The notes beneath the pieces were generated by a model. It worked only from the letters and a program-made list of their open reading frames with translations, made no database searches and had not been told where the DNA came from. Below are positions 15,788-22,588 of a stretch of 32,000 nt of DNA, one piece after another. The stretch is from Ureaplasma parvum serovar 3 str. ATCC 27815 (lineage in GTDB: Bacteria; Bacillota_I; Bacilli_A; Mycoplasmatales; Mycoplasmoidaceae), in assembly GCF_000019345.1 (NCBI RefSeq), contig NC_010503.1, positions 90,001 through 122,000 on the forward strand, read 5' to 3'. The translations under genes were made by a program, and so were the position numbers. Position 1 is the stretch's first letter. Every line of letters begins with the position of its first letter.

Positions 15788-17581
15788 ATGAGCGAATCAA
15801 CATTGTACCGTAAATATCGGCCACATAAATTTAAAAATGTAATAGGTCAAGATTTAATTAAACAAGCATTAATGAATGCTTGTTTAAACAACAAAATTAC
15901 ACATGCTTATATTTTTAGTGGACCACGAGGAATTGGAAAAACATCAATAGCTAGAATTTTTGCGTCTAGTATTAATTGTTTAAATCCTAATAAAGGTGAT
16001 TGTTGCGGCAAATGTAGTGTTTGTGAAAGTATTCTCAAAGAACAAAGTGTTGATTTGATTGAATTAGATGCTGCTAGTAATAATGGTGTTGATCAAATAC
16101 GTATTATTACTGATAATATAAATTATTTACCAACATTTTTTAAGTATAAAGTCTATATTATTGATGAAGCACATATGCTATCTACATCAGCATGAAATGC
16201 TTTATTAAAAACAGTTGAAGAACCACCACAACACGTTATTTTTATTTTTGCAACAACAGAGTACCAAAAAATTCCCTTAACAATTATTAGTCGTTGCCAA
16301 CGTTATGATTTTAAGCGTTTAAATAACAGTGAATTACAAGAATTAATAGACTCTATCCTTACAAAAGAAGATATCAAAATTGATAATAATGCAATTGATA
16401 AATTAATTCAATTAGCTGATGGATCTGGGCGTGATTGTTTAAGCATTTTAGATCAATTAACAACGGTTAAAAAAAATATAGATCTTGATTTAATAAATAA
16501 AACTTTTGGTTTAGTTGACAACTTTAAAGTAATTTCTTTAATCGAATTAATTCAAAAAAACGACATTTTATTATTGCGTGAATTTATTTATGAATTATAC
16601 AATCAAGGTGTTAATTTAGAAGCTTTTTGTGTGCAAATAATAAATGTTTTAATTGATTATTTAATTTATTTAAAAACAAACGATATAAATAATCTTAAAA
16701 AAGTATCAGTTGATGAATTAAAAAAAATGTTATTAATTAATTTTAATGGTAATTATTTGTTAAATAATTTTATTTCTTTATTTAATAATTTAAAAAAATC
16801 ATTAAATCAAGTTTTTGAATTTGAAATTTATTTATATAAAATAATCAATGCTAATAATGATAAATTAGAAAATAAAAAAATAGAATTGTCAATTAACCCT
16901 GAAGAAAATAAAATTAATAATTCCCAAATAATAACGACAAAAAAAATCGATTGTTTTGAAGAAATAAATAAAAATACTGTTGATTTTGATAAGTTATACA
17001 AAACAAAAATTTTTTATCACAAAAAAATTAACAACCAGAATGATAAAGAATCAGGTATTAATCAAAAAGAAGAATTAAGTACAGAATTAGTTAATGATAA
17101 TAAATTGATTTGCAATTCTAATGATATATTAGATAATTATGAACTAGCCAAACAAGCTTTTTTTAATAAAGACATTAAACTTTCAAAAGAAATGAGTCAA
17201 AAATTTAAAGATTTTAAAAATGAAGAAACCATTGAAAATAGTTATATTGATATTATTAAACAAGCTGATTTAGTACTTTGGTGCTCACCTAATGCACTAG
17301 TTTTAGGAGTAGAGTTTTTAGGATTAATTAATCGTATCAATAAAGTTACGCATTCATTTGAATTTATTAAAGAATTTGTTAAGAAATTTGATTCTATCAA
17401 GTTAGTTATTGCTATTAGCAAAAAACAAGCATTAAATATTATTAATATTAAAAAACAAGGTTTAAAAACTAATATAATTAATGATGTTTTAATTGATGAT
17501 ATTAAAATGTTATTAAAACAAGAAGAACAACGAAAACAAGAACAAACAGCGTTATTAAATGAAATTGAAGATGAGGAGTAA
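15788..17581 (+). CDS. dnaX: DNA polymerase III subunit gamma/tau
   Basis: Track ORFs 15788..16195 and 16574..17581 share one frame, with one TGA at 16193 and the gap verified free of TAA/TAG. It has the Walker A 'GPRGIGKTS', the Zn-module 'CGKCSVCESI', the Walker B 'YIIDEAHMLS' and 'SRCQRYDF'. The protein is 597 aa. Confidence 0.93.
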
Positions 17582-17588
17582 AATTTAA

Positions 17589-17888
17589 ATGGACTTTCAA
17601 AAACTTGCACAAGAATTAAAAAAAATGCAAAACACTTTAAGTAAAAAACAAAAAGAATTTGAAGAAAAAGTGTTTGATTTTGATTATAAAGGATATGTAC
17701 TTGTTAAAATCAAAGGTGATTTAAATATTGAAGCAATTGAAATAAAAACAGAAATAGTGGATCCTGAAGACAAAGAAACATTACAAGATATTTTACGTGC
17801 AGCGATCAATGAAGCAATCTCTATAACATGTAAAGAACGAGATGCGATTATGAATGCTACAATCCCTAAAGGAACAGGTCTTTTTTAG
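17589..17888 (+). CDS. ybaB: nucleoid-associated protein YbaB/EbfC
   Basis: Intact 99-aa ORF. The 'LKKMQ...' N-terminus and its position between dnaX and recR follow the conserved operon order. Confidence 0.9.
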   Translation: MDFQKLAQELKKMQNTLSKKQKEFEEKVFDFDYKGYVLVKIKGDLNIEAIEIKTEIVDPEDKETLQDILRAAINEAISITCKERDAIMNATIPKGTGLF

Positions 17889-18502: not shown

Positions 18503-18568
18503 TTTTTTATTTTAAAACAATCTTTAATTATTCATTTTAAATGGGGGTTATAATAATTGTATAATTAT

Positions 18569-18575
18569 AAGGAGG
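18569..18575 (+). promoter_or_regulatory. canonical Shine-Dalgarno (AAGGAGG) for the small repeat-protein gene
   Basis: AAGGAGG lies 8 nt upstream of the ATG at 18584. Two TATAAT hexamers (18549-18554 and 18560-18565) lie just upstream. Confidence 0.55.
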
Positions 18576-18583
18576 TTAAACAT

Positions 18584-18826
18584 ATGGGTTACGGTAAAGG
18601 ATACTTAGCAATGTTTAAAAACAAGAAAGTAAGATTTAAGGTTGTAAATAGCTTTCCTGATCTAAAGGTTCAATTTGTTACATCATTTCCTGATTACAAA
18701 GTAAAGATTTCAAATTCATCTTCTTTTTGTGAGGAAACTATTAAAATTCAAGTTGTTACTAGCTTTCCTGATGTAAAATTACAAAAAGTTACATCATTCG
18801 GTGATTTTGAAGCTTATATTGACTAA
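18584..18826 (+). CDS. hypothetical 80-aa protein made of SFPD-x-KV repeats
   Basis: I prefer the ATG at 18584, which has a perfect SD, over the track's TTG at 18557. The protein is 'MGYGKGYLAMFKNKKVRFKVVNSFPDLKVQFVTSFPDYKVKISNSSSFCEETIKIQVVTSFPDVKLQKVTSFGDFEAYID'. That gives about five 11-residue units of the form V-x-S-F-P-D-x-K-V. I do not recognise it as a characterised family. Confidence 0.6.
   Translation: MGYGKGYLAMFKNKKVRFKVVNSFPDLKVQFVTSFPDYKVKISNSSSFCEETIKIQVVTSFPDVKLQKVTSFGDFEAYID
18641..18817 (+). repeat. internal duplication within the small ORF (two ~66-nt double units, 111 nt apart)
   Basis: Segments 18641-18706 and 18752-18817 align without gaps. By eye they are roughly three-quarters identical, sharing 'agctttcctgat' and 'gttacatcatt'. 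Each encodes two SFPD-type units. Confidence 0.7.
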
Positions 18827-18859
18827 GAACTAGATAATAAAAAATTTTTATTTTTTGAT

Positions 18860-18889
18860 TGAGCTGGTGGTATGCTGGCTCATTTTTTT
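18860..18889 (+). terminator. intrinsic terminator/attenuator-like hairpin between the small ORF and the nuclease gene
   Basis: The stem pairs 18860-18867 with 18875-18882 ('tgagctgg' with 'ctggctca'), giving 8 bp including 2 G-U pairs. The loop is 7 nt and a run of 7 T follows at 18883-18889. The track's ATG at 18872 sits inside the loop. Confidence 0.5.
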
Positions 18890-18922
18890 AATATATTTAA
18901 TTTGAGAAGAGGCGAGTTAATT

Positions 18923-20626
18923 ATGGCTAATGAGTATTATAATATGTGTGCCTTAGATGCACTCAAATTTGTGAAAAATAGAAATATGTTATTACCAGAT
19001 ATTCAAAGAGAATATGTTTGGGATACAACTGATATAGAAAAATTATTTGAATCTATAGTTGATGATTATCCAGTGGGTTCTTGTATATTTTGGAAAACAA
19101 ATAAAAAAGTACTTAATGATGAAAAACCAAATCTTTATTATTTTATTTCTAAATATAAGCAAGGCGTAACTAAAAATGAAAAAGCACCAGAATTTGTATC
19201 TGATGAAACAGATTATTATATAGTATTAGATGGACAACAAAGAATTACATCTCTTAATATTGCATTGTTTGGATCGTTTACATCTAAGAAAAAAGGTAAA
19301 GGATATAGTGTAAAAAATTCTAAATCATGGGTAGAACGAGAACTATATTATAATTTATCTTTTTACGACAGCAATGAATTGGATGATGAAAATCCCATTA
19401 AAAGATTTGTATTTTTGTCTGAAGAAGAAGCAAAGAATGGTAATTATTATAAAGTTAAGCAAATAGTTAAAAGTGATAACTTAACTGATTATGTTGATAC
19501 AATATCGAATTTTAATAAAAATGTAAAAACGGATTTAATGTGTTTGTATAGAAGAATTATGGAAGCGTCTGCCACTAGTGTAATTCATTATTATTGCATT
19601 GCAGAGAATACATATGATGAAGCACTAGATATTTTTGTTAGAGTAAATTCTACTGGAAGAAAACTATCAAAGTCCGATTTATTATTTTCTACATTAATTG
19701 ATGGTTGGAAAGAAGGGAAGGAAAATATAGACACCTTATTGTCTGACTTAAATTCAGCTGGAGATGGATTTTCTTTTACAAGAGATTATTTAATGCGATT
19801 GGCTTTGGTATTAGTTGATGCAAATACTAATTTAAAAATTGATTCGTTAACTTCTAAAACAATAAAGGAAATCAGGGATAACTGGCAAAAAATAAAGAAA
19901 GCGCTAGAAAAATTATCTGAATTATTAGTTTCAATTGGCATGTGTGACGAAAATATGACCTCATATAATGCAACCATTCCACTGGCATATTATTTTTACA
20001 AAGGTGGCAAAATTGATACAGCAGAATCAAAAAAAGAAGCAAGAAAGTTCCTAGCCGTTTCAATGTCAAAAGGACTGTTTGGTGTAGCAAGTAATGATTC
20101 TTTGAATCAAAGCAGAACTGCTCTTAAGTCAGTAAATGAAAAAACTCCATTTTCATTAACTTTATTTAGTAGTATTACTTTAACGGGTAATAGAACATTT
20201 ACTGCATCGAAAGATGATATTGAATATTGGTTGACGAAGTTTGAAAAAGGAAAAAACACATTCATAATTCTTTCTTTGCTTTATCCTAATTTAAAGTTAA
20301 GCCAAGTTGAGTTCCATCAGGATCACTGTCACCCTTATACTTCATTTGATGATAAAAACATTAAAAAATTAGGATTGACAGAAGATAAAATAAAAGAATG
20401 GCAGTTTAAAAGAAATTTAATTCCTAATTTGCAGTTTTTGGCAGGTAAGGAAAATGAGTCAAAAAATAAAAGGCCTTTATCAAATTGGGTTAAAGATGGA
20501 AATACCTTTGAATATAGACCAGAAAATGTTTCTCTTGAATTATCCAATTTTGATAAATTTTTTAATGAAAGAAAATCCCTTATAAAAAATAAGCTTTTGG
20601 ATATTTTTGGTTTAAAAGCAAACTAA
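18923..20626 (+). CDS. DUF262 + DUF1524 (His-Me/HNH-type) nuclease, GmrSD/BrxU-like type IV restriction-family protein
   Basis: This is an uninterrupted ORF. The N-terminal DUF262 motifs are 'LLPDIQREYVW' (19001-19021), 'YPVGSCIFW', 'VLDGQQRITSL' (DGQQR at 19229-19243) and 'VNSTGRKLSKSDLLFS'. The C-terminal DUF1524-type motifs are 'HQDHCHP' (20315-20335) and 'NLIPNLQFLAGKENESKNK'. I prefer the ATG at 18923, which is downstream of the hairpin and preceded by GAGG-containing sequence, giving 567 aa. Confidence 0.85.
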   Translation: MANEYYNMCALDALKFVKNRNMLLPDIQREYVWDTTDIEKLFESIVDDYPVGSCIFWKTNKKVLNDEKPNLYYFISKYKQGVTKNEKAPEFVSDETDYYIVLDGQQRITSLNIALFGSFTSKKKGKGYSVKNSKSWVERELYYNLSFYDSNELDDENPIKRFVFLSEEEAKNGNYYKVKQIVKSDNLTDYVDTISNFNKNVKTDLMCLYRRIMEASATSVIHYYCIAENTYDEALDIFVRVNSTGRKLSKSDLLFSTLIDGWKEGKENIDTLLSDLNSAGDGFSFTRDYLMRLALVLVDANTNLKIDSLTSKTIKEIRDNWQKIKKALEKLSELLVSIGMCDENMTSYNATIPLAYYFYKGGKIDTAESKKEARKFLAVSMSKGLFGVASNDSLNQSRTALKSVNEKTPFSLTLFSSITLTGNRTFTASKDDIEYWLTKFEKGKNTFIILSLLYPNLKLSQVEFHQDHCHPYTSFDDKNIKKLGLTEDKIKEWQFKRNLIPNLQFLAGKENESKNKRPLSNWVKDGNTFEYRPENVSLELSNFDKFFNERKSLIKNKLLDIFGLKAN

Positions 20627-20853
20627 AAATAAATAAATGTATAAAAATCTAGATTTTACTCAGTTCTAAATAAATTAATTTCTGTATGAAGTGGAATTAC
20701 ATGGTTTTTTTGCTTGAATATTGTAAATATTCGTATGCTTTGATATAGTATTAATGCAAGCCAATGTGTATAGTGCTTTGCAGTACCTATGACCGATTAA
20801 TGGTGGAGTGGTGCAAAAAAAATTATTTTTCTCTGATCTCAAAGGGTTGATGA

Positions 20854-20931
20854 AAGGAGGAACTTATTATGTCATCAAACAAAGTAGAAAGATTCGACTT
20901 GTTTAAGAACATAACATTATCATTTTGATAA
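20854..20931 (+). other. orphan strong SD (AAGGAGG) plus 20-codon micro-ORF, possibly the 5' remnant of a lost gene
   Basis: AAGGAGG at 20854-20860 lies 8 nt upstream of the ATG at 20869. The ORF reads 'MSSNKVERFDLFKNITLSF' and then TGA-TAA (20926-20931). A 7-bp inverted repeat, 'ttgatga' and 'tcatcaa', brackets the SD and start codon. Confidence 0.2.
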
Positions 20932-21241
20932 ATTAATATTTTGTTTAAGAATAGATAACATTTTAAATTCTTAGTTCTAATTCGTTAATCTTTTTCTAAT
21001 TTAAGAATTTTTATTTATAGATTTGTTTTTTTTAACTCATTGGTTATTTTAATTAATTCATTAATACTATAAATTAGAAACATTTTATTTTGATTAGAAG
21101 CATTTTGAATTTAAACTTTATATCTATAATACAAATTTTGTGTTTTTTATAATTTTATAAATTTCTTATTAAGAAATACAAAGATTAAATAATATAATTA
21201 ATGATTAGTACAATAATTTTTAAAATATAAAGAGGTAATTG

Positions 21242-22588
21242 ATGTTCAAAGCAATGATAGGTAGTATTGTAAGTAAACAAATGTCAAAAAAATTAAAAAA
21301 TGCGACAATTGTTGAAGAAGATATTAAAGAATTATTAAGCGAGATAAGAATAGCATTATTAGATGCTGACGTTAATTTATTAGTTGTTAAAAAATTTATT
21401 AAAAACATCAAAGAAAAAACAATTGGATTGTATGTTGAAGCAAACCAAAAGCCAGCAGATCTTGTTTTAAAAATAATTAAAGATGAATTAGTTGAAATTT
21501 TAGGAAAAGAAAATAAGCCAGTTAACACAGCTAAATCACAATTAAAAATTATGATGGTTGGTTTACAAGGTTCAGGTAAAACAACAACTACTGGTAAATT
21601 AGCTAATTATTTTAAAAATAAATACAATAAAAAACCATTATTAGTGGCGGCTGATATCTATCGTCCAGCGGCGATTGATCAATTAAGAACATTAGCAAAA
21701 CAAGTTCGTGTAGATTTTTGAGAAGAAGGAACACAACGCCCTGATTTAATTGTAAAAAATGCTTTAAACAAAGCTGATGAAAATGAAAATAATTTGATAA
21801 TTGTTGATACAGCTGGACGTTTACAAACAAACGAAGAGTTAATGCAAGAATTAGTAAATGTTAAAAAAACACTAAATCCTGATGAGGTTTTTTTAGTTGT
21901 TGATGCTATGGCAGGCCAAGACATTATTAACGTTGCTACAGAATTCAATAATTGATTAAAATTAACAGGTATTATTGTTACTAAATTAGATTCAGATGCA
22001 CGTGCTGGAGCTGTTTTATCATTAACATCGTTATTAAATATACCAATTAAATTCACAGGTACTGGTGAAAAAATAGGATCAATTGATAGTTTCTATCCAG
22101 AACGAATGGCTGATCGAATTTTAGGTCTTGGTGATATCATGACTTTAGCAGAGAAAGCAGCTGATGTTATTGATGAAAAACAAGTTCGTGGTTCGATGCA
22201 ACGAATGATGGCAGGAAAAATGGATTTAGAAGATTTAATGCGTCAAATGAGTCAAATTAGTAAATTAGGTAGTTTTTCAGGAATAGCTAAGATGATTCCT
22301 GGATTGAACAATATTTCTGAAAACCAAATTGGTGATGCTGAGAGCAAAATGAAAATATGAACAATTTTATTATCAAGTATGACTTTAAAAGAACGTCGTG
22401 ATCCGCGCGTTTTTAAAAAAGAACCATCAAGACGCATACGGGTTTTAAAAGGATCAGGACGTTCGCCTGATGAATTAAATAAGTTATTAAAACAGTGGGA
22501 AGTGTCACGTGATAAAATGGCAGAACTTGGTAAAATGTTACAAAAAGGAAAAAATCCTTTTAGTAAATCTGGTGGGTTATTTAGTTAA
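21242..22588 (+). CDS. ffh: signal recognition particle protein Ffh
   Basis: Track fragments 21239..21721, 22106..22360 and 22379..22588 join in one frame through 3 TGA codons, with the gaps verified. The GTPase motifs are 'GLQGSGKTTT', 'DTAGRL' and 'TKLDSDARAG'. It has a Met-rich M domain. The ATG at 21242 has an AGAGG SD. The protein is 448 aa. Confidence 0.95.

Follow-up and report, generated by a model that had tools for sequence, protein, structure and literature searches.

The 7_1-knotted protein UU089.1 of Ureaplasma parvum: an apparently imported gene beside a GmrSD-family restriction gene, and a possible accessory of single-gene defence nucleases

INTRODUCTION

A 7_1 knot was predicted by AlphaFold in 2022 for the small protein UU089.1 (Q9PR55; Brems et al., PMC9278004), and X-ray and nuclear magnetic resonance (NMR) structures confirmed this 'septoil' knot in 2023 (Hsu et al., J Biol Chem 2023/24, PMC10840475), from which the knot type used here is taken. 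On its solution in 2023, UU089.1 ranked as the smallest protein to carry the most complex knot then known; an 8_3-knotted protein has since been reported (2026, PMC13715821), and the title of 'most complex' has passed to it. Each loop of its pseudo-five-fold β-barrel holds an SFPD tetrapeptide whose phenylalanine faces outward, and the protein has a melting temperature (Tm) of 59°C, does not unfold in 7.2 M urea, and resists ClpXP (PMC10840475). The same paper counts more than 150 homologues and leaves the function not established. Both the structure and the prediction paper name U. urealyticum as the source and give neither gene context nor function (PMC10840475, PMC9278004), and a full-text literature search on Q9PR55, the family, and the knot returned no paper on either. 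Here, we describe the gene of this protein in a stretch of 32,000 nucleotides of the U. parvum serovar 3 str. ATCC 27815 chromosome (the window, whose positions are used below), where it occupies the open reading frame 18584–18826. The window was read with genetic code 4 (TGA encodes tryptophan), the only code under which its dnaX, recR, ffh, and other genes are open.

At the level of the locus, the closest described systems are the single-gene defence cassettes regulated by WYL/BrxR proteins and the PADLOC candidates HEC-05/GmrSD, UzuA, PD-T4-3, PDC-S26, PDC-S01, PDC-S11, and mREase_II. Proteins of the UU089.1 type, which lack a leader peptide and belong to the Septknot family, are encoded inside or directly beside such cassettes in the same orientation. 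The difference is that Septknot is no catalogued component of these systems: no PADLOC model matches Septknot itself, and the literature search found no published system that contains one. The structure and the family of UU089.1 are already known, and the novelty does not lie in the protein itself. The pattern of neighbours makes its function testable, by asking whether a knotted mini-barrel alters the activity of single-gene restriction or abortive-infection nucleases.

RESULTS

The reading frame encodes the known Septknot protein UU089.1

The 80-residue product of the frame is 100% identical to residues 10–89 of the chain deposited as PDB 8IWA, 8IWB, 8IWC, 8JRM, and 8W68 ('Uncharacterized protein UU089.1'), and an 89-residue reading from the TTG at 18557 is identical to the full deposited chain. 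The frame is U. parvum UU089.1 (Q9PR55), the type member of Pfam PF19647 (DUF6150/Septknot). The two are the same protein with the same fold over all 80 residues; the deposited construct differs in that it begins nine residues earlier, at a TTG that has no comparative support. A sequence search returned 549 homologues at E ≤ 0.01, whereas a cluster look-up by exact sequence gave no match. Because the same sequence was solved by crystallography and NMR and these homologues exist, the frame is a real gene and not a spurious one. Septknot membership is indirect, resting on identity to a solved member and on the precomputed annotation of homologues: relatives at 44–86% identity carry PF19647, which a newer table names 'Septknot'. 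It counts against this assignment that a local hmmscan lists no PF19647 for UU089.1 or for any other member of the family, but this negative says little, since clear members are missed as well and the model seems to be missing from the library scanned. Pfam and NCBIfam scans of the 80-residue protein gave only an IF3 match and a sub-threshold BA_2335-like match. The latter (PF22372) was rejected as a family, the weak local match at residues 20–44 reaching 18.2 bits, below the gathering threshold of 27.

Upon prediction with AlphaFold2 (AF2), the 80-residue form gave a model with a predicted local distance difference test (pLDDT) score of 84.5, which matched 8iwa_A at a template modelling (TM) score of 0.97 and a root-mean-square deviation of 0.7 Å, the known knotted fold. 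A structure search of this model against the PDB found no other fold at E < 2. Family identity, tandem units of about 11 residues with a strand and a turn, and the mini-barrel fold were all found, as expected of a Septknot protein. The initial annotation, which was made from the letters of the window, had proposed a stack of β-hairpins or a small solenoid, perhaps an oligomerising module. The solved pseudo-five-fold barrel with its 7_1 knot replaces the solenoid, and the structure paper (PMC10840475) describes UU089.1 as monomeric in solution, which goes against the oligomer. The likeness to uncharacterised bacterial mini-proteins that the annotation had noted was right insofar as UU089.1 belongs to such a family; the family is not unassigned, being PF19647, and it is a known family of known structure and without known function. 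That the frame is spurious, or encodes a simple β-hairpin solenoid or oligomer, has virtually no probability, since nothing except small size and repeats speaks for it, against the structures of the identical sequence, the monomeric state, and the homologues.

The five repeat units of about 11 residues claimed at first are exactly those that the translation gives, and each corresponds to a β-strand plus a conserved F-P-D turn, so that the repeats are structural units. The protein has four copies of SF[PG]D (residues 23, 34, 60, and 71) and, at 47–50, a degenerate SFCE. Self-identity of the protein peaks at lags of 11 residues (16 matches) and 37 residues (15 matches), values equalled at any lag in 1 of 20,000 shuffles. 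The diverged duplication of a two-unit block in the DNA also held up, with 47 of 66 positions identical between 18641–18706 and 18752–18817, compared to a mean of 20.5 (standard deviation 4.0, maximum 38) for random 66-nucleotide pairs from the window; a repeat search returned the pair of blocks listed in Table 1. In the resulting picture, the five units, each a strand with its S-F-P-D turn, wind round a common axis to form a monomeric mini-barrel whose chain traces a 7_1 torus knot. As a side observation, one U. parvum assembly (L132; L and G numbers are our labels for loci and genomes) carries P62S in the fourth SFPD turn.

The gene lies in an apparent insertion between recR and ffh

The Septknot gene is single-copy in the genome, and it is followed by a gene for a GmrSD-family type IV restriction enzyme (Table 1). 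No Septknot match was found in 13 other Ureaplasma species, and 100 genomes of the family gave a single marginal match (E 8e-4) that is interrupted by a stop; of the other genomes of the class, 4 of 399 had a match. The spacing of recR and ffh is 10–15 nt in two Ureaplasma species (L108, L109). In the sister species, whose RecR is 92% identical, the junction holds a different 1.7-kb filler (L107:663-2357) encoding a 244-residue coiled-coil membrane protein on the minus strand, and only window positions 20923–21112 and 21184 onward align to it. Because the junction is empty in the two former species and only these segments align in the latter, the insert in U. parvum spans about 2.4 kb.

A metagenome contig of 31.5% GC (L137) carries the same arrangement, with a Septknot gene (84% amino acid identity), a terminator-like hairpin, and a GmrSD gene (63%); the contig is collinear with window 18556–20592 at 67.5% nucleotide identity. 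The TATAATTAT-AGGAGG block is kept there, and the terminator-like site stands at the same position with a sequence unlike that of the window. This collinear pair indicates that U. parvum acquired the two genes together, in a single cassette. The comparisons of genomes show a gene that is not ancestral to Ureaplasma and was imported, together with the downstream GmrSD gene, between recR and ffh. Its nearest relatives (70–86% amino acid identity) are from Christensenella, Oscillospiraceae, Erysipelotrichaceae, other Clostridia, Fusobacterium polymorphum, and Paludibacteraceae, that is, from gut, rumen, and oral bacteria. The GC content of the Septknot gene is 28–32% in every host checked, at locus GC contents of 26–39%. 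The donor pool is probably one of low-GC mobile defence cassettes of Bacillota, Fusobacterium, and Bacteroidales; the tree of the leaderless clade is essentially a star and too short for resolving donors. With respect to a shared landing site, recR was not near any other Septknot locus examined. Taken jointly, the identity, the structure, the gene model, and the origin given here are very probably correct.

Two side observations concern the junction. The segment 20923–21112 resembles a remnant of the filler of the sister species, and what lies between recR and ffh varies across Ureaplasma.

Table 1. Features of the recR–ffh region, in window coordinates
Feature	Position	Strand	Remark
dnaX	15788–17581
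ybaB	17589–17888
recR	17897–18502
Species-specific insertion	18503–20920		Septknot gene, terminator, and GmrSD gene; right boundary approximate
Two TATAAT boxes, candidate −10 elements	18549–18554, 18560–18565	+	Sequence reading
TTG, start in the 89-residue database/PDB model	18557–18559	+	Judged a probable over-extension
Shine-Dalgarno AGGAGG	18570–18575	+	8 nt 5ʹ of the ATG
UU089.1/Q9PR55 coding sequence, 80-residue Septknot (PF19647)	18584–18826	+	100% identity to PDB 8iwa residues 10–89
Repeat block A (units 1–2)	18636–18695	+	SFPD turns encoded at 18650–18661 and 18683–18694
Degenerate third turn S47-F48-C49-E50	18722–18733	+
Repeat block B (units 4–5)	18747–18806	+	SFPD turn 18761–18772, SFGD turn 18794–18805; 77% identical to block A
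Intrinsic-terminator-like hairpin and T-run	18860–18889	+	Between the Septknot and GmrSD genes
GmrSD-family type IV restriction enzyme gene	18923–20626	+	DUF262 N-domain; Pfam GmrSD_N 2.9e-34; PADLOC HEC-05 7.5e-150
Gene-free stretch, 612 nt	Between the GmrSD gene (ends 20626) and ffh (starts 21239)
ffh	21239–22588

The native protein probably starts at the ATG and has 80 residues

Comparison of relatives suggests that the native product is the 80-residue protein from the ATG at 18584 and not the 89-residue form from the TTG at 18557, which would correct the deposited length. The ATG is invariant in 12 loci, with a GGAGG-type Shine-Dalgarno sequence 6–10 nt ahead, and 49 of the sampled relatives have exactly 80 residues. 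In three loci (L010, L011, and L118) the stop of the upstream gene lies 4 nt before the Septknot ATG. The TTG position is not conserved, reading TTT in the collinear cassette of L137, and gene callers give 80 residues in public assemblies. The crystal chains contain 77–79 ordered residues, and the first 11–15 residues of the 89-residue construct are disordered and were removed by proteolysis (PMC10840475).

The gene had been credited initially with a strong Shine-Dalgarno sequence and a terminator of its own, and both are present (Table 1). Among the five AGGAGG sites of the window, the one ahead of UU089.1 is the sole one before a gene start, as judged by manual reading. The 80-residue protein would thus be made from its own Shine-Dalgarno sequence, in a gene closed by its own terminator. 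A promoter scan reported TTTAAA-18-TATAAT with its end at 18565, and the candidate TATAAT boxes would put the start of transcription at or after the TTG.

Septknot proteins fall into a leaderless and a secreted clade

When 266 sampled homologues were sorted by length, two clades were seen. The leaderless clade comprises 88 proteins of 74–90 residues, mostly without cysteine and with three to four clean turns, of which one has a signal-peptide-like N-terminus. The secreted clade comprises 148 proteins of 100–170 residues, 120 of them with a signal-peptide-like N-terminus, which have five to six clean SFPD units, usually two cysteines, and an SFPG end. Repeat number, whose conservation the initial annotation had proposed to check, is fixed within each clade. 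Secreted members are found in Leptospira, Myxococcota, Bacteroidota, and others, and one homologue, P73136 of Synechocystis, is reported to have a 5_1 knot (PMC9278004). P73136 and the secreted clade share the family and the repeat unit with UU089.1; the secreted clade differs from the clade of UU089.1 in its signal peptide, length, cysteine pair, and neighbours, which are of envelope and not of defence type. These neighbours are lineage-specific (CsgG/LpoB-TPR, trypsin-like peptidase, sulfatase), and clustering of the neighbours of 80 genome loci gave lineage-specific synteny only, with GmrSD near none of them.

Several unusual members were noted. Septknot units occur inside larger secreted proteins, such as P0246 (2571 residues), which carries the CHU_C signal of type IX secretion and matches the family in 13 stretches. 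Further larger proteins with Septknot units are P0207 (216 residues), P0174, and P0226, and these include a two-Tudor/Agenet-like fusion and tandem double Septknot domains. A divergent 80-residue member (L084:1477-1719, genome G403) has Y-G-E-D in place of every S-F-P-D, the aromatic residue being shifted by one position and the acidic residue and the spacing being kept.

Leaderless Septknot genes adjoin defence genes of several families

Loci were drawn from genome contigs, exact-protein look-ups, genomes of the class, and metagenome contigs, and their immediate neighbours were scanned with PADLOC. By hand tally, about 20 of 32 dereplicated contexts of the leaderless clade have a catalogued defence gene adjoining Septknot, five have a partner of about 190 residues (p190), and seven have neither. 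The catalogued partners span eight families (Table 2), and nearly all are co-directional with Septknot at gaps of 4–290 nt. As a control, PADLOC was run on 113 genes directly next to members of the secreted clade, and it returned generic matches only (five trypsin-like peptidases, three cyclases, and a few methylases). WYL regulators stand at the head of four cassettes (L110, L150, L153, and L156), and serine recombinases lie close by in four loci (L005, L010, L115, and L116).

Table 2. Catalogued defence genes next to leaderless Septknot genes, with PADLOC E values where available
Family	Position relative to Septknot	Loci
HEC-05/GmrSD	Downstream	Window 7.5e-150; L137 (63% amino acid identity to the window protein); L138 3.2e-203
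UzuA	Downstream	L005 3.4e-48; L115 5.2e-47; L003 1.4e-37; by homology L116, L117, L136, L158
PDC-S26 (PD-(D/E)xK)	Upstream	L110 1.8e-20; L153 1.5e-57; L006; L004; L140
PD-T4-3 (GIY-YIG)	Upstream	L007 1.1e-59
PDC-S01	Downstream	L009 3.5e-111; L110 3.5e-124 (two genes downstream, non-adjacent)
Methyl-directed type II restriction endonuclease (mREase_II)	Either side	L083 3.1e-43; L150 1.3e-51
PDC-S11	Upstream	L112 (Fusobacterium) 2e-23
mad3-like ATPase	Adjacent	L013 2.3e-32

The five contexts with p190 are three-gene inserts amid housekeeping genes, in which a divergent helix-turn-helix (HTH) gene and the gene for the roughly 190-residue protein are followed by Septknot after a gap of 4–5 nt. The p190 family itself (25 clusters; for example, L123:4409-4993, L010:7409-7993, L118:5434-5994, and L121:4412-4993) is marked by an invariant F-H-D-E-H..P motif. 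Its genes form small inserts among housekeeping genes, placed behind a divergent HTH or WYL regulator, and Septknot follows 4–5 nt downstream in some of them but not in others. No Pfam, PADLOC, or PDB sequence match was found for p190, and its AF2 model (pLDDT 95) had no Foldseek match in the PDB; a nuclease assignment was therefore not confirmed. Another small protein, 'c11' (105–204 residues, no PADLOC match), recurs directly downstream of Septknot in cassettes composed of a WYL regulator, a nuclease, and Septknot (L110:5322-5705, L006:8092-8703, L140:1277-1660, L146:609-923, and L150:4266-4703).

DISCUSSION

The neighbourhood pattern leads us to propose, tentatively, that the leaderless Septknot is a stable binding or plug module and an optional accessory that modulates single-gene defence nucleases. 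Such a protein would be non-enzymatic and very stable, and it would travel co-directionally with the nucleases. It is rather doubtful that the leaderless proteins of about 80 residues are, as a whole, a generic optional accessory of GmrSD, UzuA, PD-T4-3, PDC-S26, methyl-directed restriction endonucleases, and others, with resistance to unfolding and proteolysis as the functional property. On that broader reading, the protein could serve as a decoy, as a clamp that escapes degradation, or as a plug, either controlling the nuclease or blocking AAA+ machines of phage or host. If true, a deeply knotted fold would have been given a biological role for the first time. Several points weigh against an accessory role. 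The link to defence is a correlation of neighbourhoods, in which many contigs are metagenomic, some lineages were sampled repeatedly, and dereplication was done by hand; five loci (L008, L012, L084, L125, and L155) have no recognisable defence neighbour; and the terminator that parts Septknot from GmrSD also fits a gene that merely rides in the same island.

Whether the partnership is obligate can be judged from the loci where it is broken. Septknot and GmrSD are adjacent, co-directional, and co-inserted in U. parvum, the pair recurs collinearly in L137 with its intervening terminator, and a third pairing (L138) joins Septknot to a distant GmrSD (30% amino acid identity) across a gap of 6 nt, all of which would suit a two-gene defence system in which the nuclease needs the knotted protein as its subunit, immunity factor, or antitoxin. 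This is nevertheless improbable, as a 65%-identical GmrSD in genome G361 (L088) has no Septknot and an unrelated 126-residue gene ahead of it, the genomes of the class sample that bear Septknot and those that bear GmrSD do not overlap, and Septknot also partners seven other defence families and p190. GmrSD-family enzymes such as BrxU act alone, which weighs against an obligate pair as well. In one U. parvum assembly (L134, ERR13393061; L134:3662-3904), a C to T change at window position 18749 turns Q56 into a stop, and the GmrSD gene is intact and identical; being a single assembly, this is weak evidence. The loci where the partners part (L088, p190 without Septknot, and L134) argue against an antitoxin or immunity role, and we infer that Septknot is neither an obligate subunit of GmrSD nor its immunity protein or antitoxin. 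A looser association, in which Septknot would be a self-contained and unrelated passenger of defence islands, with a promoter and a terminator of its own, brought near nucleases only by the gathering of mobile cargo at the same hotspots, fits its own Shine-Dalgarno sequence and terminator in U. parvum and L137, the variety of partners on either side, the nearby serine recombinases, and a gene GC content that stays low whatever that of the locus. Judged by the same neighbourhoods, we consider it rather unlikely: the partner is almost always co-directional and close, gaps of 4–6 nt suggest translational coupling, and the same slot recurs in cassettes made of a WYL regulator, a variable nuclease, Septknot, and a small protein (L110, L140, L150, and L153).

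A small stable protein beside restriction genes on mobile DNA could also be a phage or plasmid anti-restriction protein, and phrog_6462, which is mainly of the secreted clade, matches the family (secreted member, 1.2e-35; UU089.1, 1.9e-8). However, tblastn searches were empty in 50,697 phage records and 72,556 plasmids, the single IMG/VR contig that matched is of the secreted clade, no match to the fold was found in BFVD, and Septknot is chromosomal and lies in cis to the defence gene. UU089.1 is basic (12 lysines and arginines vs. 8 aspartates and glutamates) and so is no DNA mimic. Its charge and its absence from the phage and plasmid collections argue against an anti-restriction DNA mimic of phage, and an anti-defence role in general is very unlikely. 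The modulation of single-gene defence nucleases by an optional accessory is the reading that we tentatively prefer.

The discussion in PMC10840475 suggests that the extreme resistance to urea was selected for by the urea-based metabolism of Ureaplasma, given that the protein does not unfold at 7.2 M urea and that its host lives on urea. Against this, the gene is a recent import that was not found in 13 other Ureaplasma species, and relatives of 70–86% identity occur in gut and rumen Bacillota, Fusobacterium, and Bacteroidales. An adaptation to Ureaplasma is therefore highly improbable, and the stability is most simply a property of the fold.

One further observation concerns proteins of unfoldase type. 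Three Septknot cassettes (L110:721-1980, L004:4103-5404, and L006:3968-5422) open with a soluble FtsH-like AAA+/peptidase M41 protein, which has a weak IetA-like PADLOC match (1.2e-8) and is of note given the resistance of UU089.1 to AAA+ unfoldases in vitro.

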